From a virus: a DNA stretch of 64,000 bases. Both the position numbers and the translations under genes were made by a program. The stretch covers positions 278,014 through 342,013 of the IMG/VR virus record IMGVR_UViG_3300028558_000016; one strand, given 5' to 3'. How positions within the stretch are numbered: position 1 is the first letter of the stretch; every line of letters begins with the position of its first letter. Under the pieces are notes generated by a model, which saw nothing but the letters and a program-made list of their open reading frames with translations, had not been told where the DNA came from and made no database searches. Shown piece by piece: positions 2,687 through 46,519 of the stretch.

Positions 2687-4924
2687 ATGGCTCCATATTT
2701 TAAAATAACTACAACAGGAACAAGCCCATCAACGGTCATTTTATATGATCTTGGTGAGAGAACTTTTACACATCCTACTGTAGATTTAGATCTTCTTTTA
2801 GAATTTTCTTTAGAAGAAATCCAGAATTCTCTGGATCTTATTACTGCAATAGATGCTGGAAGATTAACGGCAAATTTAGACGGAACATCCGTAACTACTG
2901 CCGATCAATTCTATGCAAACCTCACGAGCGTTTCAGGATATTCTGGAATAAGTGGAACTTCAGGATTCTCTGGATACTCAGGGGTTTCTGGATATTCTGG
3001 AACTTCTGGAATAAGTGGAACATCAGGAATTTCTGGATATTCCGGAGTTTCTGGTTACACGGGCGTTTCAGGTTTTAGCGGCGTATCAGGTTTTTCTGGC
3101 GTAAGCGGATGGTCAGGAACATCGGGAATTTCTGGGTTTAGTGGAATTTCTGGATGGTCGGGAACAAGCGGAATTTCAGGAACCTCTGGTATTTCAGGAA
3201 CTTCAGGAGTATCCGGATTTTCAGGAACCTCTGGATATTCTGGAACTTCCGGCTTCTCAGGTTACTCAGGAACCTCAGGTTTTTCTGGATATTCTGGAAT
3301 AAGTGGAACATCAGGAATCTCCGGATTTTCTGGAGTTTCAGGTTTCACTGGAGTATCTGGTCTATCGGGTTTCTCTGGAAAAGCAGACAGATATTTAACT
3401 TCCTCAACAACTTCTTTAACGATACCTGTTGGATCTCCAGCAGTGCAAACATTAACCGTTGAAGCAGGATTAGCATATTCAGTTGGACAAGGCATTGTAG
3501 TTGCAAATGATTCAACACATTTATTCACAGGAGAAGTTCAATCTTACAATAATGTTTCTGGAGTTTTAGTTGTTATAGTTCAAACAGAATTAGGAACAGG
3601 AACATTTACTTCATGGACAGTTAACCTCGACGGAGTTCAAGGCGTTCAAGGAAATTCCGGTATTTCTGGATTTTCTGGAATAGCCGTATCAGGTTTCTCT
3701 GGATATTCTGGTGTTAGCGGTTTTAGTGGAGTTTCTGGATTTACAGGAGTTTCTGGTTATTCTGGCTTCACAGGAGTTTCAGGATTCAGCGGATATTCTG
3801 GTGTGAGCGGTTACAGTGGAACATCAGGATTTTCTGGTGTTTCAGGTTTTTCAGGTTACAGCGGAGTCTCTGGATTTTCTGGAGTTTCAGGTTATTCTGG
3901 AACATCAGGCGTTAGCGGATTTTCAGGAATTAGCGGATATAGTGGAACTTCAGGTTTCACAGGAACTTCAGGCGTATCAGGTTATTCAGGCGTATCAGGT
4001 TTCACGGGAGTCTCCGGATTTAGTGGATATTCTGGTGTTAGCGGATTCACAGGTGTGAGCGGTTATTCCGGATTTTCTGGTGTGAGCGGTTACAGTGGAA
4101 CATCGGGTTACTCAGGAACTTCCGGTTATTCTGGAACTTCTGGTACATCCGGTTTTTCGGGAGTTAGTGGATATTCTGGAGTTTCAGGATTTACCGGAGC
4201 TTCAGGTGTCTCTGGATTTAGCGGTGTTTCTGGTTACAGTGGAACATCAGGATTTAGTGGATATTCTGGAGTGAGCGGATATAGTGGAACTTCCGGTTTC
4301 TCTGGATATTCCGGTGTTTCAGGTTATTCTGGAGTTTCAGGATTTACCGGAGCTTCAGGTGTTTCAGGATTCACTGGAGCAAGCGGTGTTTCAGGTTTTT
4401 CAGGCGTGAGTGGATTCTCTGGATATTCTGGAGTTTCTGGATTCTCAGGTACATCTGGAAAGAGCGGATTTTCTGGAGTTTCTGGAAATCCTCCGACATC
4501 TTCTTATGCAGAAATGTACATGACTGGTAATGGAACTGCGACAGCAGTTGTTACTGTTTCTGTTCCATTAAAAGTTGCAGGAACTACGACAGCAGGAGAT
4601 AAGACTTCTGATTGGACCCATGCTTCTAATAAGCTAACATATACCGGAACAACTACACAGGAGTTCTTCTTGAATGTTTCTTTCTCAGCAAATTCTGCTT
4701 CGGCTTCAAAGAGCTTTAGCTTCTTTGTTTACAAGAATGGTTCAGCTGTTTCAAAGTCTCAGATCAATAACTTCTTAAGAAGTTCTGGTGATGATTTTGC
4801 TGGAGGCGTTTCATGTTTGATCTCTTTAGCAACAAATGATTTTGTTGAACTGTGGACACAGAACAATACTTCGGCATCGGATGTTACGGTATCTTATATG
4901 AATTTTAACCTTACAAGAATATAA
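2687..4924 (+). CDS. Collagen-like (Gly-X-Ser)n tail-fibre protein with two repeat blocks
   Basis: Two G-X-S arrays separated by a non-repetitive segment; C-terminal globular domain rich in T/S/N/V. Confidence 0.8.
2927..3381 (+). repeat. Coding G-X-S triplet repeat array, block 1
   Basis: Tandem triplet-codon repeats within ORF 2687..4924. Confidence 0.75.
3631..4487 (+). repeat. Coding G-X-S triplet repeat array, block 2
   Basis: Tandem triplet-codon repeats within ORF 2687..4924. Confidence 0.75.
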
Positions 4925-34287: not shown

Positions 34288-36081
34288 ATGAAAAGATCAA
34301 CTAAACATTTCGGAGATTATTCCGATGCGGAGTTAAAAAGCATGAGTCCTGAGCAACTCATTGCTATCATCTTGGAAGGTCAGAACGATGATAACTTCAT
34401 CATCATGACAGACTCTTACAAAATGACTCATCACCTGCTTTATCCTAATGGATTAAGAAGGGTTTACTCATATATGGAACCACGCGGCGGCGAAATGCCT
34501 TACACCGTATTCTTTGGATTGCAGTATTACATCAAAAGGTATCTTGCTGGAAGAAGAATCACCAAAGAGAAAATCGAAGATGCACGTCAAGCAAACATTG
34601 CACACTTTGGATTTGATTGCTTTGATGATACAATGTGGTATCACATATTAAATAAGCACGATGGTAAACTTCCATTGAGAATTAAAGCTATTCCTGAAGG
34701 AACTCCGATCGCTGTTAAGAATATCGTGATGGATATGGAAAACTTAGACCTTGATAATTGTGCAGCATTGACAAACATCACAGAAACATTGTTAATGAAA
34801 ATCTGGGCAACATGTACTGTCGCAGCTTACAATAGAATCATCAAGGAATTAATAACAAAGAATCACGCGATCACTTCAGACCTTCCAGCATTCTTGATTG
34901 ATTACATGCACCATGATTTTGGTTACAGAGGAACTTCATCAGAAGAGACTGCACGCTTAATGGCTGCGGCTGCAATGACAAGTTTTAAAGGAACTGACAC
35001 AATGGGCGGTTTAAGCTTAATCAAGAAATATTATTCTCCTGATGGAGCAACATGGTCTGAATGCATGGCAGGTTTCTCTGTTATTGCGTCTGAACACTCA
35101 GTTGTTTGTTCATACGGTGGAAGACACAAAGAAGCGAAATCATACCTTGACATTATAAACAAGGTTAAGAACCATCCTAAAATTAAGATAGCAAAACCAT
35201 TGAGCGGAGTAATTATTCTATCTTTGGTGTCTGACACTTATAACATCTACAATGTGTCTAAGAAAATTCTTAAACAATTGGAAAAAGAATTTATTGGATG
35301 GACAAACGATAACGGCATTCCAATTAAGATTGTTATTCGTCCTGACTCGGGAGTTCCTGCTAACGTGTTATTTGGATATAACGATGTTGTTAAAGGAATG
35401 GTTGCTGACAAAGATGCTTTAGCAGTAGCACCAATCGACCTTTGCAAAAGAGTTGCAGATGACATGTCGATAACTTTAGAAGAAGGAACAGAGCTTGTGA
35501 CCAAAGGAGTATTTGAAATACTGTTCGATGAATTTGGATCAACAACAAACACTAAAGGTTACAGAGTATTCCATCCACAAATAGGAGTATTACAAGGTGA
35601 TGGCGTTAAGTATACTGTCATCGATGAATTCCATGAGATCATGAAAACGAAAGAATACATGATAGACATCATGATGCTTGTTGTTGGTTCAGGCGGAAAA
35701 AATCTACAGGCTCACGATCGTGATGAACAAAAATGGGCAATCAAAGCAACTGAGGTTGGCATCGATAATGACTCAGTAATGGGTGGTATAGAAACAGTTC
35801 AAATAGAAAAAAATCCAATCACAGATCCTGGAAAGAAATCTAAAAAAGGAGATCTTAAGCTTGGCAAGAAAATGCTTAAGGTAGGCCCTGATTACGATTT
35901 CACAAAAGAATGGATGAACTTTAAAACCTTCCAAGAAGGTGAAGAAGGATTTGATACTGTAACAAACCTTTTAGTTCCTGTATTTGAAATGGGAGAAATC
36001 CTCGTTGAATACGATTTTGAAGAAGTGAGAGCGAACAGTGCGGTAGTATATCCTCAAATTAAAAAAACGGCTTTAGCCTAA
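34288..36081 (+). CDS. nadV: Nicotinamide phosphoribosyltransferase (NadV/NAMPT)
   Basis: FIIMTDSYKMTHHLLYPNGLRRVYSYMEPRGG closely parallels the NAMPT segment [31 protein letters not shown]; 597 aa. Confidence 0.85.
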   Translation: MKRSTKHFGDYSDAELKSMSPEQLIAIILEGQNDDNFIIMTDSYKMTHHLLYPNGLRRVYSYMEPRGGEMPYTVFFGLQYYIKRYLAGRRITKEKIEDARQANIAHFGFDCFDDTMWYHILNKHDGKLPLRIKAIPEGTPIAVKNIVMDMENLDLDNCAALTNITETLLMKIWATCTVAAYNRIIKELITKNHAITSDLPAFLIDYMHHDFGYRGTSSEETARLMAAAAMTSFKGTDTMGGLSLIKKYYSPDGATWSECMAGFSVIASEHSVVCSYGGRHKEAKSYLDIINKVKNHPKIKIAKPLSGVIILSLVSDTYNIYNVSKKILKQLEKEFIGWTNDNGIPIKIVIRPDSGVPANVLFGYNDVVKGMVADKDALAVAPIDLCKRVADDMSITLEEGTELVTKGVFEILFDEFGSTTNTKGYRVFHPQIGVLQGDGVKYTVIDEFHEIMKTKEYMIDIMMLVVGSGGKNLQAHDRDEQKWAIKATEVGIDNDSVMGGIETVQIEKNPITDPGKKSKKGDLKLGKKMLKVGPDYDFTKEWMNFKTFQEGEEGFDTVTNLLVPVFEMGEILVEYDFEEVRANSAVVYPQIKKTALA

Positions 36082-38845: not shown

Positions 38846-39348
38846 ATAAGCTCGAATATAGAATGTATGGAATAGTTCCTTACAACATTTCAGAAATACA
38901 AAAAGGAATCCAATTTGGACATGCTGTTGTAGAATACTCGTTGAAGTATTTTAAGAACGAAGACTTTCAACAGTGGGCCAAGAAGCACAAAACATTCATG
39001 GTTATGAATGGAGGAACAACCAATATGGGAGAAGGAACAATTCAAGGAAGACCCGATTGGATGGTTGAAGAACTTAAAGGGTCATTAAATAAATACGCCG
39101 ATTTACTTTCCAAAAATAAAATCAAATGCGCTTATTTCTTTGAGCCAGACTTAAATGATGCTTTAACTGCCGCGGTATTTCTTGCAGATGAAAGAGTTTT
39201 CGACAAGATTAAATATCCTGATTATGTTCCTCTTTCTTTTGATTTAGCAAAAAATGATCCACAACACGAGAAAGAATGGGTCAAATCTATAGGAGGAAAA
39301 CAAAATGTTTTCCTTCGTGAATTCATATCTAAACTAAGATTTGCATGA
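38842..39348 (+). CDS. Hypothetical protein
   Basis: ORF with ATGA junctions on both sides. Confidence 0.4.
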   Translation: MNKLEYRMYGIVPYNISEIQKGIQFGHAVVEYSLKYFKNEDFQQWAKKHKTFMVMNGGTTNMGEGTIQGRPDWMVEELKGSLNKYADLLSKNKIKCAYFFEPDLNDALTAAVFLADERVFDKIKYPDYVPLSFDLAKNDPQHEKEWVKSIGGKQNVFLREFISKLRFA

Positions 39349-40031
39349 AAACGACAGACAAATACGTATTATTTTATACTGAGGTATTTTCTCAGTGGCA
39401 TCCTTCCAATTTTGAAGTAGGAGGTAAAAAATTCTGCACAGCAGAACAATTCATGATGTATTTCAAAGCATTAACGTTCGGTGATCAAGAGATTGCAGAC
39501 AAGATATTAGCAACAAATAGTCCACGTGAACAAAAGAAACTTGGACGCGCTGTTAAAGGATTTGATGCTGTTAAATGGAATGCAATAGCCAAGGAAGTTG
39601 TATTCAAAGGAAACAGAGCTAAGTTTCAACAGAATCCAGAAATGTTCGAACAATTAATGGCAACAGGACACAAAGAACTTGTTGAAGCTTCCCCTTATGA
39701 TACTATATGGGGAATAGGCTTTGATGAAAATGCTCCTGAAGCTCTTGATAAGTCAACATGGAATGGAACAAATTGGCTTGGCGAAGTATTAACAAAGCTT
39801 AGAGATGTTCTTAGAAGAGAACAGACAATTCAAAACATAGTGAAACATGGTGAAGCTGAATTGGAAAAATTTGCCAGGGATTATCCAAATGACATAGGAC
39901 GATTGTATGAAAGCTATAAAAAATTGAAAACACAATCTTGGTCTGAAGATTTTTTAAGAGGATATTTAGGAGCTATAACAGATTTAATTATTATTAAAAA
40001 AGGACATTGGGGAGACTCATTTGTAAAATAA
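39345..40031 (+). CDS. NADAR-domain protein (YbiA-like; NAD/ADP-ribose N-glycosidase family)
   Basis: VLFYTEVFSQWHPSNFEVGGKKFCTAEQFMMYFKA...LGRAVKGFD...KFQQNP...LVEASPYDTIWGIGFDE parallels the E. coli YbiA pattern. Confidence 0.7.
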   Translation: MKTTDKYVLFYTEVFSQWHPSNFEVGGKKFCTAEQFMMYFKALTFGDQEIADKILATNSPREQKKLGRAVKGFDAVKWNAIAKEVVFKGNRAKFQQNPEMFEQLMATGHKELVEASPYDTIWGIGFDENAPEALDKSTWNGTNWLGEVLTKLRDVLRREQTIQNIVKHGEAELEKFARDYPNDIGRLYESYKKLKTQSWSEDFLRGYLGAITDLIIIKKGHWGDSFVK

Positions 40032-41592: not shown

Positions 41593-41930
41593 TGGAACAA
41601 GCAAAGATCGATAAGATAAACAGCATAATCGCAGATGCAAAGAATAAAATTAAATTTCTTGAATGTGACGGTTCAACGAGAGTATTTGATTACCTTCTAA
41701 CTAAGAATAACATCAAACATACTGTAATGGTTGGAACTGCATCACTGGAAGATAAAGAGATGCTACATTATTGGATCAAAATTGATGACATGATATTGGA
41801 CCTAAAATCAAAGATGTGGTTTGGAGATGAAGCCTCAGAAGGATTATTCAAAACAAGCAAGGTCAAGTATAACGGTAAACCAATAGAGCTAAATACCTCC
41901 GAATTGATGTACCATATTTTAACAAGTTAA
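41592..41930 (+). CDS. Hypothetical protein
   Basis: ATGA junction; no motif recognised. Confidence 0.4.
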   Translation: MEQAKIDKINSIIADAKNKIKFLECDGSTRVFDYLLTKNNIKHTVMVGTASLEDKEMLHYWIKIDDMILDLKSKMWFGDEASEGLFKTSKVKYNGKPIELNTSELMYHILTS

Positions 41931-41955
41931 ATTTTCGAGGCTCAAAAATATCTTT

Positions 41956-41963
41956 TATATTTG
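41956..41963 (+). promoter_or_regulatory. Promoter -7 box TATATTTG, near-leaderless
   Basis: Exact TAnnTTTG 5 nt upstream of ATG 41968. Confidence 0.4.
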
Positions 41964-41967
41964 TTGC

Positions 41968-42195
41968 ATGAGCAATGAATTAATAAGAATACTTAAAGAC
42001 ATAACACATGACAATGAAGAAAAAAGACTTCAAAAAGCGAGTGAATGTTCTGATGGAATAAGCTATTACAATTGTAATGCTTTACCAATGGTAGATCAAT
42101 TAGCAAATGAACTTTCCAAGTTGTCTGAAGTTGAATTGTCATTGGCCTTAAGAATTCTCGTTAGAAAGACTCAGAAAAAGGCCCAGAAAAAATAA
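41968..42195 (+). CDS. Hypothetical protein (75 aa)
   Basis: ORF; no motif recognised. Confidence 0.4.
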   Translation: MSNELIRILKDITHDNEEKRLQKASECSDGISYYNCNALPMVDQLANELSKLSEVELSLALRILVRKTQKKAQKK

Positions 42196-42220
42196 ATTTT
42201 TTAGTTTCAGAAATAGTTCC

Positions 42221-42228
42221 TATATTTG
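42221..42228 (+). promoter_or_regulatory. Promoter -7 box TATATTTG (TATATTTGCACTGAT, identical 15-mer to the site at 60345)
   Basis: Exact 15-nt repeat of the Smr-gene promoter; no ORF follows. Confidence 0.45.
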
Positions 42229-42235
42229 CACTGAT

Positions 42236-42566
42236 CATAGTTAAATGGCTTTATGCAATATATGTGTAGCTGTTCTACCTTCATCAGATGCAAGGACAAA
42301 AATTTAGGTGCGGTTATCTCCTTGCTAAACTATCGCATAGGTCAGGATTGCATTGAGAAATGCAATTGTATGGACAGACTTTAGGTATGATCATAATTTT
42401 AGAAACAAAAAAGGTATATAAGAATATAACAAGTCATGAAAACAACATTGTCATTAAGTCTAAGTTTGTCGCTATCCTTATCAGGATGGACTAACCGGGC
42501 TATGTGATAATTTCTGACTAATAAGAAATTTGAATGAACCCGGTGGAAACATCGGGTTTTTTATTT
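42236..42566 (+). ncRNA. Candidate small RNA between a promoter copy and an intrinsic terminator, upstream of the tRNA cluster
   Basis: About 330 nt with no ORF of 60 aa or more. Internal perfect hairpin ATTGCATTgagaAATGCAAT. Ends in the terminator aACCCGGTGgaaaCATCGGGTtttttt. Confidence 0.35.
42537..42566 (+). terminator. Rho-independent terminator
   Basis: ACCCGGTG gaaa CATCGGGT followed by tttttt. Confidence 0.6.
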
Positions 42567-42575
42567 TATACACAT

Positions 42576-42658
42576 GCCCATGTGGCGGAATTGGTAGACG
42601 CGCCGGTCTTAGGAACCGGTGCCTTTAAGGCGTGCAGGTTCGAGTCCTGTCATGGGTA
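42576..42658 (+). tRNA. tRNA-Leu (anticodon TAG), class II
   Basis: GCCCATG acceptor, AATTGGTAG D-loop, anticodon loop CTTAGGA, long variable arm, GTTCGAGT T-loop; no encoded CCA. Confidence 0.8.
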
Positions 42659-42739
42659 CAACGTGGTGAAAGTACATTCAGACTGTACCATCAGATTTTA
42701 GCTACTGATGAAGCATTTGTGGTGATGCTGCTGCGAATT

Positions 42740-42826
42740 GGTGAGATGTCCGAGTGGTTTAAGGAGCAACCCTGGAAAGGTTGTATACGGGAAACCGTAT
42801 CGTGGGTTCGAATCCCACTCTCACCG
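42740..42826 (+). tRNA. tRNA-Ser (anticodon GGA), class II
   Basis: GGTGAGA acceptor, 3-bp D-stem with GAGTGGTTTAA loop, anticodon loop CTGGAAA, long variable arm, discriminator G. Confidence 0.8.
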
Positions 42827-42836
42827 CAAATAAAAT

Positions 42837-42920
42837 GGAAGGTTGGTAGAGCGGTCTATTGCACCAGTCTTGAAAACTGGAGATCCTACGGGGTCCGTGA
42901 GTTCGAATCTCACACCTTCC
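42837..42920 (+). tRNA. tRNA-Ser (anticodon TGA), class II
   Basis: GGAAGGT acceptor, D-arm GTA/GAGCGGTCTAT/TGC, anticodon stem CCAGT with loop CTTGAAA; very similar to E. coli tRNA-Ser(UGA). Confidence 0.8.
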
Positions 42921-42926
42921 GCAATT

Positions 42927-43014
42927 GGAGAGCTACTCAAGTTGGTTAAGAGGCGCGTTTGCTAAACGTGTAGGACGAGAAATCGTTGGGTGGGTTCGAA
43001 CCCCACGCTCTCCG
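42927..43014 (+). tRNA. tRNA-Ser (anticodon GCT), class II
   Basis: GGAGAGC acceptor, anticodon loop TTGCTAA, long variable arm, discriminator G. Confidence 0.75.
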
Positions 43015-43025
43015 CAGAAAATTCT

Positions 43026-43108
43026 GCCCCCATGGTGGAATTGGTAGACACGCAGGACTTAAAATCCTGTGCCCTTAGGGCGTACGAGTTCGAGTCTCGT
43101 TGGGGGTA
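43026..43108 (+). tRNA. tRNA-Leu (anticodon TAA), class II
   Basis: GCCCCCA acceptor, anticodon stem CAGGA/TCCTG with loop CTTAAAA, long variable arm. Confidence 0.8.
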
Positions 43109-43115
43109 CATAAAT

Positions 43116-43197
43116 GCCGAGTTGGCGGAATTGGTAGACGCGCTGGTCTCAAACACCAGTGACGAAAGTCGTGTGGGTTCGAGTCCCACACTCGGTA
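43116..43197 (+). tRNA. tRNA-Leu (anticodon CAA), class II
   Basis: GCCGAGT acceptor, anticodon stem CTGGT/ACCAG with loop CTCAAAC, long variable arm. Confidence 0.8.
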
Positions 43198-43213
43198 CAA
43201 GAAGAAGAATAAA

Positions 43214-44677
43214 ATGGAAAATGATAAAAAATATTGCTTGGTGATGTTTCCTTATCCGTCTGGAGATGGATTGCACATTGGACATTGCTACAACTACTTG
43301 ATAGTTGATAGCTATTGTCGTTGGATGAAGAGAAAAGGAATTGAAGTGTTTCAACCATTTGGTTATGACGCTTTCGGTTTGCCTGCGGAGAATTATGCGA
43401 TCAAGCATAACAGAGATCCAAAAGAAGTCACCTATGAAAACATAGAAAATTTCAGAAGGCAGATGAAGAGATTGGATACTAATTATGAAGAGAAGTTAAT
43501 TACAGCTGATCCATCTTATTTCAAATGGACACAATGGTTGTTCACAAAGATGTTGGAGAAGGGAATTGCTTACAAGAAATTTCATCCAGTAAACTTTTGT
43601 CCATCTTGCGCAACAGTGATTGCCAATGAGCAGGTGAAGGAAGGAAAATGTGAGAGATGCAATTCAGTTGTTGAGATGAAAAACTTGAATCAATGGTTCT
43701 TCAGAATAACAGACTACACAGATAGGTTGATCAAGAACTTGCAATGGTTGGATTATCCCGAGAAAACCAAGAAGCAACAATTACATTGGTTGGAGAAGAT
43801 GAAAGAAAACAAGATCGATTGGTGTGTGTCAAGACAGAGAAAATGGGGATGTCCAATTCCTGTTGAAGGAGAGGAAGATACTTTGGACACATTTGTTGAC
43901 AGCTCATTTTACTACTTGAGATTCTTGACGGATTCTGAAGATGAATTCTTGCCAAGAGAAAAATATAAGCAGGTTGATTTGTACGTCGGAGGAAATGAAC
44001 ATGCTTGCATGCATTTGATTTATGCAAGATTTGTGAACATGTTCTTGTATGACTTGGGAATTGTTGAACAAGAAGAACCGTTCAAGAAGTTGATTCATCA
44101 GGGAATGATCAAGATGAATGGAACAAAGATGTCCAAGTCTATCGGCAATGTTGTTAATCCGGATGGGTATGATCCAGATGAATTGAGATTTTACTTGATG
44201 TTCATTGGACATTATTTTGATGGCGGAGATTGGAACGATCAAAACATTGTTGGCATAAGAAAATTCTTTGCACGATGGGATAAGCTTACTTTTAGAGAAG
44301 CAAAGGAAGGAATTGAATCTATGGATTTGACTGAATTTGAAAACCAGATCGATGGTTATGTGAAAGCTTTCAAGTTCAATAAGGTTGTTAGTTCATTCAT
44401 GGAATTTTACAACAATAATAGCAGCAGAAACTTTGACAAGGAAACCAGATTGAAGTTGAGAAGAATGTTGGAGTGTTTTGCGCCAACAAGATTTTCTAAA
44501 GATGAAAGGCCTCCAGTTGGCATGGATGAATTAAGAAGAAAATCCAATGAGTTGTCTGAGAACGTAAACAAGATTGAAGTAATGGTTAATAAAATTTTTA
44601 AAGATGTTGAACAAAAAGAAAATATCACCGGAATATCCGAGAATACCTCACTTGATGGGGAAGTCAAATCTGTATGA
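43214..44677 (+). CDS. leuS: Leucyl-tRNA synthetase-like class I aaRS catalytic core, apparently lacking the CP1 editing and C-terminal domains
   Basis: PYPSGDGLHIGHCYNY (HIGH) and MNGTKMSKSIGN (KMSKS). Only about 265 aa lie between the two motifs and 487 aa in total, against about 860 aa in bacterial LeuRS. Zinc knuckle CPSC...CERC present. Confidence 0.8.
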   Translation: MENDKKYCLVMFPYPSGDGLHIGHCYNYLIVDSYCRWMKRKGIEVFQPFGYDAFGLPAENYAIKHNRDPKEVTYENIENFRRQMKRLDTNYEEKLITADPSYFKWTQWLFTKMLEKGIAYKKFHPVNFCPSCATVIANEQVKEGKCERCNSVVEMKNLNQWFFRITDYTDRLIKNLQWLDYPEKTKKQQLHWLEKMKENKIDWCVSRQRKWGCPIPVEGEEDTLDTFVDSSFYYLRFLTDSEDEFLPREKYKQVDLYVGGNEHACMHLIYARFVNMFLYDLGIVEQEEPFKKLIHQGMIKMNGTKMSKSIGNVVNPDGYDPDELRFYLMFIGHYFDGGDWNDQNIVGIRKFFARWDKLTFREAKEGIESMDLTEFENQIDGYVKAFKFNKVVSSFMEFYNNNSSRNFDKETRLKLRRMLECFAPTRFSKDERPPVGMDELRRKSNELSENVNKIEVMVNKIFKDVEQKENITGISENTSLDGEVKSV

Positions 44678-45308
44678 CGATGACATTGAGATCAATGTTG
44701 AGTTAGGGTTTGATGCCTTTGTACAAGAGAAGGTTGATGGAGCAAACTGTGGAATCAGTTGGTTCGATGGACCCATTCTCAGAAACAGAACCCATGTGTT
44801 AAGAAAGGGATTTGAAAGAGACACTCCAGCAAAGAAACAATTTGTTCCAGCTTGGAATTGGTTGCATGAAAGAGAAGATGACTTGAAGGAGATGATGAAG
44901 AAGTGGAATGGACAGATAACTGTTTATGGAGAGTGGATGCTTGCAAAACATTCTATTGGATATGAGAAGCTTCCAGATTATTTTCTTGCTTATGACATTT
45001 GGTCGTGTGAAGAAAACAAGTTTGTTTCTCCGAAGGAATGCAAGGAACTTTTGAATGGGACTGGCATAAGATGGATCGAAGCAGAAAGAATAAGCATTCA
45101 ATCGTTCTCTGATTTGAAGTCAGTTCTTGATGTTCCCTCTAAGTACAGAGATGGAATTAAAGAAGGAATAGTTATCAAGAAAACTGACGAAGACGATAAG
45201 TGGATAGAGAAGACTTTCAAGGTTGTTAGAAAAGATTTTGAAAGGGCTGATGAAAGCTGGAATAAGAAAAAGCTTGAAAAGAATAAGCTGATAAAGAGGA
45301 GTGCCTGA
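44655..45308 (+). CDS. Minimal ATP-dependent polynucleotide (probably RNA) ligase, nucleotidyltransferase domain only
   Basis: Motif I EKVDGAN (KxDG), motif IV EGIVIKK, motif V KVVRKD. The track ORF starts at 44604 inside leuS; 44655 is the internal ATG. Confidence 0.5.
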   Translation: MGKSNLYDDDIEINVELGFDAFVQEKVDGANCGISWFDGPILRNRTHVLRKGFERDTPAKKQFVPAWNWLHEREDDLKEMMKKWNGQITVYGEWMLAKHSIGYEKLPDYFLAYDIWSCEENKFVSPKECKELLNGTGIRWIEAERISIQSFSDLKSVLDVPSKYRDGIKEGIVIKKTDEDDKWIEKTFKVVRKDFERADESWNKKKLEKNKLIKRSA

Positions 45309-45380
45309 GTGGCTGAAAGGACCGGTCTCGAAAACCGGCACACCCAAAAGGTGTCGTGAGTTCGAATCTCACCTCCTCTG
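45295..45380 (+). tRNA. tRNA-Ser (anticodon CGA), class II
   Basis: AGAGGAG acceptor (A1-U72), D-arm CCT/GAGTGGCTGAA/AGG, anticodon loop CTCGAAA, long variable arm, discriminator G; overlaps the last 14 nt of the ligase ORF. Confidence 0.75.
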
Positions 45381-45419
45381 CATTTTTTAATTTGATGATT
45401 TTTTTGTAAATTCACTATC

Positions 45420-45725
45420 ATGAATGATGAAGATAAAAAAATAAAGGGATCATTGTTTTTCTTGTACATCGGCAAGCTTAAAGAATTGGGTTTGATAGAA
45501 GGTGGCGCAGGAGATTTGACCATGAAAGGTTTTGACATTGCCATTGATGCCTATAACAGTGGACATAGATTGTCAGATGAGGAGATTAGTAATTTTCTCG
45601 AAGCCGCTCCTGGAATGGACGATGACGACACAATAGAGGCAGCATTTGGAATGATAGCCAAGATGCAAGAAATTGGATTTGATGGAATGAAAGAATTGGT
45701 TGAACGAGTAAAGAAAACATTATGA
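45420..45725 (+). CDS. Hypothetical acidic protein
   Basis: ORF with ATGA junction to Sir2. Confidence 0.4.
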   Translation: MNDEDKKIKGSLFFLYIGKLKELGLIEGGAGDLTMKGFDIAIDAYNSGHRLSDEEISNFLEAAPGMDDDDTIEAAFGMIAKMQEIGFDGMKELVERVKKTL

Positions 45726-46432
45726 AAAAGAAATTAGTGGTGTTTAGCGGTGCAGGAGTTTCTGCTGAGAGCGGAATTCCTACATTCAGAGATTCAAATG
45801 GTCTTTGGGAAAACCATAAGATGGAAGATGTTGCTACTCCAGAAGGATGGGAGAAAAACAGAGAGCTTGTTCTCAACTTCTACAATCTTATGAGAACGAA
45901 ACTCAAAGCAGTTGTTCCGAATAAAGCTCACAATATAATTGCAGAGCTTGAAGAACATTTTGAAGTTACAGTCATCACACAAAACATAGATGACTTGCAT
46001 GAGAGAAGCGGCTCAAAGAAGGTCATACATCTTCATGGAGAATTAATGAAGAGCAGAAGCACATTTAATCCAAATCTAAAATACGAGTGTACTGGAAATA
46101 TAAACATAGGTGACAAATGTGAGAAAGGTTCTCAATTGAGGCCTGACATAGTTTGGTTTCATGAAAATGTTTATCACCTTGACACTGCGGCTGAATTGGT
46201 AGAACAGTGCGATATTCTTCTTGTTGTTGGAACTTCATTAAATGTTTGGCCTGCAGCAGGATTGTTATATGTGACGAAACCGGAAACTGAAATATATTGC
46301 ATTGATCCAAAAACAGTTGTTGGAAGTGATATTCAAGTTACTCACATAAAGAAGAAAGCGAGTGAAGGGATGGAGAAATTTAAAAAGATTATTCTCGAGA
46401 AAAAAGATAAGAAAGAAAATTGCTGTTTATAA
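45722..46432 (+). CDS. Sir2-family NAD-dependent protein deacylase / ADP-ribosyltransferase (sirtuin, CobB-like)
   Basis: FSGAGVSAESGIPTFR, TQNIDDLHERSG, catalytic His in IHLHGEL, and VVGTS are canonical sirtuin motifs. Confidence 0.8.
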   Translation: MKKKLVVFSGAGVSAESGIPTFRDSNGLWENHKMEDVATPEGWEKNRELVLNFYNLMRTKLKAVVPNKAHNIIAELEEHFEVTVITQNIDDLHERSGSKKVIHLHGELMKSRSTFNPNLKYECTGNINIGDKCEKGSQLRPDIVWFHENVYHLDTAAELVEQCDILLVVGTSLNVWPAAGLLYVTKPETEIYCIDPKTVVGSDIQVTHIKKKASEGMEKFKKIILEKKDKKENCCL

Positions 46433-46436
46433 TAAT

Positions 46437-46518
46437 GCCCAGGTGTTGGAATTGGTAGACAAGCACGGTTGAGGGCCGTGTGCAGTAATGCGTAGGGGTT
46501 CGAGTCCCCTTCTGGGTA
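46437..46518 (+). tRNA. tRNA-Leu (anticodon GAG), class II
   Basis: GCCCAGG acceptor, anticodon stem CACGG/CCGTG with loop TTGAGGG, long variable arm; the next ORF starts 2 nt after its 3' end. Confidence 0.75.
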
Positions 46519-46519
46519 C

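Follow-up and report, generated by a model that had tools for sequence, protein, structure and literature searches.

The stretch of viral DNA considered here (the window: 64,000 nucleotides (nt), positions 278,014 to 342,013 of IMG/VR record IMGVR_UViG_3300028558_000016) carries eight tRNA genes, all of them for leucine or serine, and six of these form an array followed closely by the gene of a protein resembling leucyl-tRNA synthetase (LeuRS). Directly 5′ of the array lies the subject of this study, a leader region with a short open reading frame (ORF) and an intrinsic terminator; it is part of a segment (42221-42566) that an earlier sequence-only reading had taken for a small RNA (sRNA) of about 330 nt or, alternatively, for the 5′ leader of a polycistronic tRNA transcript. 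By examining the short ORF, the alternative pairings of its RNA, and the corresponding loci of related phages, we hypothesize that the leader is an attenuator of the tRNA operon. The features of the locus are as follows.

42189-42228, + strand: putative promoter-like region, judged by sequence, with AAAATAAATTTTTT at 42189-42202 and a -7 box, TATATTTG, at 42221-42228
42232-42398, + strand: insertion of 156 nt with direct repeats, TGATCATA(G/A)TT, at 42232-42242 and 42388-42398
42402-42435, + strand: A-rich 5′ region of the leader, GAAACAAAAAAGGTATATAAGAATATAACAAGTC, directly 5′ of the leader ATG; presumed translation-initiation region
42436-42507, + strand: leader peptide ORF, MKTTLSLSLSLSLSLSGWTNRAM, of 23 codons and TGA, with a second stop, TAA, at 42508-42510
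42448-42483, + strand: regulatory codons, TTG TCA TTA AGT CTA AGT TTG TCG CTA TCC TTA TCA
42432-42519, + strand: 1:2 hairpin, in which the start of the leader ORF pairs with its end and the first nucleotides past the stop
42493-42500, + strand: segment 2, AACCGGGC, codons 20-22
42509-42530, + strand: inner hairpin, AATTTCT/AGAAATT, enclosed by the antiterminator helix
42536-42567, + strand: intrinsic terminator, GAACCCGGTG-GAAA-CATCGGGTTT, then TTTATTTT
42576-43198, + strand: tRNA array, Leu-tag, Ser-gga, Ser-tga, Ser-gct, Leu-taa, Leu-caa
43214-44677, + strand: LeuRS-like class I aminoacyl-tRNA synthetase core of 487 amino acids (aa), starting 15 nt past the last tRNA of the array
44604-46519, + strand: probable remainder of the operon, with RNA ligase (44604-45308), tRNA-Ser-cga (45295-45381), a 101-aa ORF, Sir2 (45722-46432) and tRNA-Leu-gag (46437-46519)

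As had been noted earlier, no ORF of at least 60 aa lies within 42221-42566, where the longest are of 43 and 44 aa; the 23-codon ORF was overlooked at that stage because only ORFs of at least 60 aa were considered. Its peptide is MKTT(LS)x6GWTNRAM, encoded by ATG AAA ACA ACA, the (LS)x6 run, and GGA TGG ACT AAC CGG GCT ATG TGA TAA, and 12 of the 22 post-initiator codons specify leucine or serine. The twelve positions of the leucine-serine (LS) run alternate strictly and, because they include seven different codons, do not form a DNA repeat; given the base composition, about 6e-8 alternating runs of this length would be expected in the window. The leader codons are biased toward rare ones (P = 0.015). 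Comparison with the homologous locus of a related phage (L088, described below) shows that, where the amino acid is the same, 20 of 21 leader codons (95%) are identical, versus 40 of 86 (47%) in the adjacent 112-aa gene (binomial P = 2.6e-6), which indicates that selection acts on the codons and the RNA and not on the peptide. The A-rich region before the ATG is likewise 94% identical to that of L088, whereas DNA identity in the flanking genes is 67-82%; the region contains no Shine-Dalgarno sequence. A TATATAAGAA motif precedes the leader ATGs in the huge phage genome LR745206.1 and in IMG/VR contigs.

Alternative RNA structures and ribosome position

The RNA of 42425-42570 folds to -41.7 kcal/mol (z = -5.35 against shuffled sequences) and offers mutually exclusive pairings. 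The terminator that the sequence-only reading had placed at the 3′ end is confirmed: a stem at 42536-42559 of 10 pairs (two of them G-U), closed by a GAAA loop and followed by a T-run, with a predicted energy of -14.9 kcal/mol, and a terminator occupies the same position in every homologue. It begins 28 nt past the leader ORF, and its T-run ends 10 nt before tRNA-Leu(tag), a gap in which there is no promoter-like site. The competing antiterminator is formed by ACCGGG (42494-42499) of segment 2 and CCCGGT (42539-42544) of the terminator 5′ arm; the duplex reaches -12.1 kcal/mol, a strength matched by 1-2% of shuffles. In a truncated transcript free of ribosomes the 1:2 hairpin forms with -27.9 kcal/mol; L088 retains this hairpin, and the folding suggests that it may act as an anti-antiterminator and possibly as a pause hairpin.

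The effect of ribosome position was modelled by folding the nascent transcript, that is, the RNA up to the terminator loop, while a 30-nt ribosome footprint was masked codon by codon. With the A-site on codons 1-15, the LS run included, the terminator 5′ arm is about 70% paired, in the antiterminator; with the A-site anywhere from codon 16 to the stop, ACCGGG is covered and the arm is about 40% paired. Without a ribosome the arm is again about 40% paired, being left free by the 1:2 hairpin.

The earlier reading had proposed an Rfam scan and an analysis of covariation against related phages as checks on a small RNA. At gathering thresholds the window returned only tRNAs, and no sRNA or leader family reached threshold. 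A search of 41900-42800 at E <= 10 gave sub-threshold hits only, the best being the Trp operon leader (Trp_leader, RF00513; 22.9 bits against 41 required, E = 0.047), the only leader-like hit from Rfam, which aligns over the 1:2 and terminator helices. T-box (RF00230) hits were absent both from the window, at the gathering threshold, and from 41900-42800, at E <= 10, and ARAGORN called no tmRNA. Comparison with related phages showed compensatory changes in the terminator and three-way covariation in leader pairs.

Leaders of related phages

Loci with LS leaders were found by scanning metagenomes with a degenerate pattern and by looking up LeuRS homologues. Three loci are syntenic with the window, each with an LS leader, a terminator, Ser and Leu tRNAs, and the same truncated LeuRS.

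L088, JGI Ga0315287_10000790: leader peptide MKTTLSLSLSLSLSLSGWMSRTM
L092, Logan SRR21686418: leader peptide MRTSLSLSLSLSSLSLSGQRAGLCFNLS
L095, NCBI JAWVHH010000026.1 (438 kb): leader peptide MKTVTTLSSSLSLSLLHEHDGLLFVVS

In these LS leaders segment 2 falls within codons 18-23 and pairs with the terminator arm of its own locus, and equivalents of the inner hairpin are present in all three homologues. Between the window and L088, three pairs of the terminator stem have changed (T-A to A-T, G-C to C-G, and A-T to G-C) with pairing preserved; compensation in the antiterminator is only partial. The peptide tails after the LS run vary freely in sequence and length (GWTNRAM, GWMSRTM, GQRAGLCFNLS and LHEHDGLLFVVS). 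The other four of five pattern matches in the metagenomes were CT microsatellites and were discarded. Searching the region by blastn against 50,697 phage records gave no match; nothing was found in IMG/VR with an exact 30-mer, with the degenerate LS pattern, or with a LeuRS-based search for related loci; and an exact-protein look-up of the LeuRS returned only a 2.9-kb fragment, which lacks the leader. In L092, an ORF at about 3180-3615 with an HNH-endonuclease-like motif (NHKDGDNSNH...CPNCH, read from the sequence) sits between tRNA-Ser-tga and tRNA-Ser-gct, inside the regulated array.

The closest complete relative is LR745206.1 (634,780 bp), whose LeuRS is 64.5% identical. We mapped 59 tRNAs in this genome, and eight mini-ORF units stand directly ahead of tRNA sub-arrays, seven of them followed by a canonical intrinsic terminator. 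In all eight units, the leader is enriched in the amino acids carried by its downstream tRNAs.

MTTNSTHKNFSKSHKWFSNQSF... (His/Phe/Trp): His, Phe, His, Phe, Trp tRNAs
MKTKLKYKR (Lys): Lys x4 tRNAs
MKTINNTSKSSSRSSSM... (Arg/Ser; RS): Arg, Ser tRNAs
MNTITNIASYESYYEEG... (Glu/Tyr): Glu x3, Tyr, Glu, Tyr tRNAs
MKNLNNISIAVIGNGAGAI... (Ile/Gly): Ile, Gly, Met, Gly tRNAs
MTTMNLNMTMNLTLNVVNITL... (Asn/Leu/Thr/Val/Ile/Met; NLT): Asn, Arg, Leu, Val, Ile, Thr, Met tRNAs
MKTINVNIAPVNPQPQDQDP... (Pro/Asp): Pro, Asp x4, Pro tRNAs
MTTTQQIQQQQINQTD (Gln): Gln x3 tRNAs

When the eight units and that of the window were considered together, the true assignment of leaders to arrays was the best of all 362,880 permutations. 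Further leader-array pairs occur in LR756502.1 (642 kb) and in the IMG/VR contigs L048, L065, L068 and L077; in L065, a merged Tyr-Glu-Ile-Gly-Ala array is preceded by an equally merged leader, MRTIINIEAIGYAYEAG... (...IEAIGYAYEAG...).

In 14 of 15 leaders, pairing of the terminator 5′ arm switches with ribosome position, and the drop comes in each case one to three codons past the regulatory run; a canonical intrinsic terminator with a T-run likewise follows 14 of 15. The best partner of the terminator 5′ arm always lies at nucleotides 46-89 of the ORF, just past the regulatory codons (Fisher combined P = 3.8e-5 over 8 leader types), and segment 2 has the same relative position in all 13 leaders analysed, as well as in L092 and L095. 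Covariation was examined by comparing the NLT and RS leaders of LR745206.1 with their homologues in L068 and L065. In the NLT leaders, segment 2, the 5′ arm and the 3′ arm change together (ACTGAGGGTTC/AAACCCTCAGATT/AATCTGAGGGTTT in LR745206.1 versus GGTTCGGGTTG/AAACCCGAAC/GTTCGGGTTT in L068), and in the RS leaders GATTCGA/TCGAATC corresponds to ATCCGA/TCGGAT. Three-way covariation of this kind is what competing 2:3 and 3:4 helices should produce.

Several other features of these arrays were observed in passing. Extra promoter-like boxes lie just upstream of leader promoters in LR745206.1 (342146-342300 and 387500-387570; L008/L009); what comes after them is either some 150 nt without assignment or a short hairpin with a T-run, and they may mark small transcripts. 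At 342880-342960 and 365191-365259 of the same genome, tRNA-like sequences within the arrays (acceptor and T-arm motifs recognised by eye) were left uncalled by ARAGORN. In LR756502.1 (L090, 20156-20486), an ORF of about 70 codons is inserted between an NLT-type leader and terminator and the Asn tRNAs, an order in which the attenuator would gate a protein gene first.

Putative promoter, insertion and downstream operon

The 15-mer TATATTTGCACTGAT that had been described as a promoter copy is indeed present, with copies at 42221 and 60345 only in the window; a lone 15-mer repeated in 64 kb is about what chance would give. The label is nevertheless a reasonable one, because the core of the 15-mer, TATATTTG, precedes ORF starts elsewhere and because the copy at 42221, with the upstream AAAATAAATTTTTT, aligns with the promoter region at the homologous loci L088, L092 and L095, where the distance from promoter to leader ATG is about 50-60 nt. 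Five of the six other + strand copies of the core, and one - strand copy, lie 4-20 nt 5′ of ORF starts, at the following positions.

29300, 41956, 48477, 55362 and 60345, + strand: TATATTTG boxes near ORF starts
20238, - strand: TATATTTG box near an ORF start

The -7 box of Bacteroidota-type promoters has the consensus TAnnTTTG, which TATATTTG fits. It is thus reasonable, as far as sequence can tell, to read 42189-42228 as a promoter orthologous to the leader promoters of L088, L092 and L095. Boxes only 4-20 nt from start codons also imply leaderless or very-short-leader mRNAs, with a Bacteroidota-type promoter. One of them belongs to a 75-aa ORF just upstream (41956-42195), which is absent from the syntenic L088 and L092 and matches no Pfam or PHROG family.

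Between promoter and leader, the window differs from its homologues by a 156-nt stretch that L088, L092 and L095 lack and that is specific to this lineage. Deleting one of the direct repeats together with the intervening DNA restores the promoter-leader spacing of L088, and the ends carry 14-nt imperfect inverted sequences. It looks like a small insertion and may be a miniature mobile element; no second copy was found in the window, the other loci examined, or IMG/VR or GTDB genomes. It contains a Cys-rich ORF of 43 codons (42253-42384) and the perfect 8-bp hairpin to which the earlier reading had drawn attention. The hairpin exists (ATTGCATT/AATGCAAT, 42347-42354/42359-42366) but is no more than chance would provide, the 172 nt that hold it showing no fold signal against shuffles (z = 0.14). 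Neither the 43-aa ORF nor the 44-aa ORF of the region matches a Pfam or PHROG family.

Downstream, neither a promoter nor a terminator separates the array from the LeuRS-like gene, and no terminator-like site was found on the + strand between 42560 and 47000; the RNA ligase, Sir2 and two further tRNAs probably belong to the same operon. The order LeuRS-Sir2-tRNA-Leu is kept in L088 and L092. Pfam matches only the class I catalytic core of the LeuRS-like protein, with no hit to an editing or anticodon-binding domain, and nearly all of the top 120 database matches are 410-454 aa long, which suggests a widespread family of truncated phage LeuRS. The RNA ligase ORF overlaps the start of tRNA-Ser-cga. 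Genes for NAMPT-like (34288-36081) and NADAR (39345-40031) proteins, as well as the RNA ligase and Sir2, surround or sit within the tRNA operon, and this set may represent tRNA repair and NAD-related counter-defence co-regulated with the tRNAs. Within the six-tRNA array, an 80-nt spacer (42660-42739) separates tRNA-Leu-tag from tRNA-Ser-gga, with no tRNA call and no similarity to the other DNA compared; the remaining spacers are 4-10 nt.

Proposed attenuation, its alternatives and its precedents

Sequence elements, geometry, in silico alternative pairings, conservation, covariation and the match between leaders and tRNAs together make it highly probable that the region from about 42402 to 42567 is a ribosome-mediated transcription attenuator that gates the Leu/Ser tRNA and LeuRS-like operon, probably along with the RNA ligase, Sir2 and two tRNAs that follow. 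The earlier suggestion that the region leads a polycistronic tRNA transcript and takes part in tRNA expression was right in outline. Transcription would begin from the Bacteroidota-type promoter at 42221, and a ribosome would start on the 23-codon leader. If charged Leu- or Ser-tRNA were scarce for any of the seven codons, the ribosome would stall within codons 5-15, segment 2 (ACCGGG) would be exposed and pair with CCCGGT, no terminator would form, and polymerase would enter the tRNA array. If decoding were fast, a ribosome at codons 16 to the stop would cover segment 2, and the terminator would form, releasing a leader RNA of about 330 nt at the T-run; with no ribosome, the 1:2 hairpin would sequester segment 2 and termination would follow as well. 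The net effect would be negative feedback, in which Leu/Ser tRNAs and LeuRS are made when those codons are decoded slowly. What we infer in this scheme is the activity of the promoter, the translation of the leader, the coupling of transcription to translation in the host, and the nature of the physiological trigger.

For the clade of huge Bacteroidota phages as a whole, it is likely, if somewhat less so than for the single locus, that amino-acid-specific tRNA sub-arrays are each gated by a matching leader-peptide attenuator, forming a feedback regulon that would be the first case of attenuation of tRNA genes. A further step beyond this regulon would be a response to host defence, in which the sensors register tRNAs being depleted by anticodon nucleases and switch on substitutes for them, along with the RNA ligase and NAD-related genes of the operon.

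A number of observations count against attenuation. When the full terminator is folded at equilibrium it wins for every ribosome position (Pterm 0.89-0.97) and no switch is seen, for which reason the nascent-transcript analysis was used; a switch therefore has to operate kinetically, as it does in trp. The footprint of +/-15 nt was assumed in that analysis. L088 has a weak antiterminator (4+2 bp, -8.3 kcal/mol, no better than shuffles) and a barely visible switch, and no LS leader was found in the flanks examined of L097-L100, which have a more distant LeuRS (<=75% identical). The MKTKLKYKR unit of LR745206.1 (343136-343208, L009) has an 11-bp hairpin starting at the stop codon and no T-run, and may work differently from the other units. 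In the window itself, the 156-nt insertion between promoter and leader might impair expression. Lastly, the leader contains codons cognate to seven of the eight tRNAs of the operon, an anticodon coverage that is not significant alone (P = 0.37) and was for that reason not used as evidence.

Some of these points would suit a control of the operon by leader translation through another route, such as shielding from Rho, RNase processing or stability of the tRNA precursor, or the clearing of structure. The association of leaders with tRNAs demands only a sensor of translation speed, the terminator is thermodynamically favoured at all ribosome positions, and one unit lacks a T-run. Such a route is nonetheless improbable, given that canonical intrinsic terminators with T-runs follow 14 of 15 leaders, that a segment 2 complementary to the 5′ arm lies at a constant spacing past the regulatory codons, and that the arms covary with it, features specific to attenuation; in particular, the three-way covariation favours the classical terminator/antiterminator mechanism over other translation-dependent routes.

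A stand-alone, trans-acting sRNA of about 330 nt, running from the promoter at 42221 to the terminator, fits the promoter-like box and strong terminator that frame a segment without a long ORF, and a terminated leader would accumulate as a discrete RNA. Attenuation too should yield a terminated RNA of about 330 nt, as its by-product, and a discrete species of that size therefore cannot separate an sRNA from an attenuator. The structured and conserved part comprises only the last ~145 nt, organised around the mini-ORF; the 5′ 172 nt fold no better than shuffles, 156 nt of them being the insertion missing in homologues, whereas in the conserved half it is the codons that are maintained, and these follow the identity of the tRNAs among unrelated leaders. 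No Rfam family matches, and with the terminator 10 nt from the first tRNA and no promoter between them, the array would go unexpressed unless termination were regulated. An sRNA is for these reasons very unlikely, and the decoy role that was proposed with it, and is judged together with it, found no support.

Marginally less probable still is that the mini-ORF encodes a functional Leu/Ser-repeat micropeptide whose transcript ends at the terminator, with constitutive, leaky read-through accounting for tRNA expression. Four phages conserve the ORF, but its tail residues diverge freely while synonymous sites in the LS run are frozen, and a micropeptide explains neither the eight other leaders that carry the amino acids of their own downstream tRNAs nor the covariation of segment 2 with terminator arms. 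Chance, by which low-complexity sequence and a terminator belonging to the upstream gene merely adjoin the tRNA array, could appeal to LS-coding simple repeats such as the four microsatellite matches, but is effectively refuted by the seven-codon, non-repetitive run (with ~6e-8 expected), its conservation at the same locus in three other phages, and the family-wide permutation result.

The mechanism favoured here, leader-peptide attenuation, is itself known, being of the trp/leu/thr/ilv type. In enterobacteria, trpL, leuL, hisL, pheL, thrL and ilvL are leader-peptide attenuators of amino-acid biosynthesis operons. With them the phage element shares a short ORF with a run of regulatory codons, the 1:2, 2:3 and 3:4 hairpins, an intrinsic terminator before the first regulated gene, and, in silico, termination both under fast translation and without translation; its rare codons recall the CUA codons of leuL, and more than one amino acid is sensed, as in thrL (Thr and Ile) and ilvL (Ile, Leu and Val). 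It differs in that its targets are tRNAs and an aminoacyl-tRNA synthetase, not biosynthetic enzymes, such that what is sensed is the product of the controlled genes themselves; in its strict alternation of two amino acids with seven synonymous codons; and in being phage-encoded, with a Bacteroidota-type promoter and no Shine-Dalgarno sequence. There is no sequence homology, the Rfam leader families remaining below threshold.

Closest in target class is the pheST attenuator of E. coli, in which the pheM leader peptide, rich in the cognate amino acid, controls an aminoacyl-tRNA synthetase operon, as the phage leader would control the LeuRS-like gene; pheM, by contrast, senses one amino acid and controls only protein genes, while the phage operon starts with six tRNAs, and no relatedness was found by the Rfam scan, the only check made of it. 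A possible precedent from E. coli, a leader ORF before tRNA-Phe genes, was dropped, as pheV in MG1655 has none. T-box elements (RF00230) likewise choose between terminator and antiterminator ahead of translation-apparatus genes according to the charging of a specific tRNA, but they do so without translation, contacting uncharged tRNA themselves by means of a specifier codon and the T-box sequence, whereas the phage element is built around an ORF and gave no T-box hit. New, then, are the tRNA genes as target (a sensor that reads its own product), the multi-codon and multi-amino-acid design matching each sub-array, and the phage context. No published attenuation of phage tRNA genes, or of tRNA genes controlled in this way, was found in the open-access full-text literature, although an earlier report may exist.

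Phage tRNA genes are usually seen as a static codon supplement or as spare parts against host tRNA cleavage. Huge-phage tRNA arrays have been described in the same kind of genome (Al-Shayeb et al. 2020, PMC7162821), including one of 634 kb that was placed among the Mahaphages and predicted to infect Bacteroidetes. LR745206.1 combines many tRNAs with aminoacyl-tRNA synthetase and tRNA-repair genes. The paper of Al-Shayeb et al. uses none of the words attenuat-, leader and terminator, and amino-acid-specific, individually gated sub-arrays are not described in it (PMC7162821).

For annotation, ORFs of fewer than 30 codons ahead of tRNA arrays deserve attention. The leader, about 170 nt long, is a testable system that could be moved into reporters to ask under what conditions, and for what reason, phages require tRNAs of their own, and the family would offer synthetic biology natural, orthogonal, amino-acid-specific sensors of at least nine specificities. 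If the regulon exists as proposed, it would explain the grouping of tRNAs by amino acid, the change of the leader when arrays merge (as in L065), and the frozen synonymous codons; the oldest known design of RNA switch would have been put to a new class of target, and huge phages would gauge decoding speed codon by codon and switch on only the group of tRNAs that is limiting.

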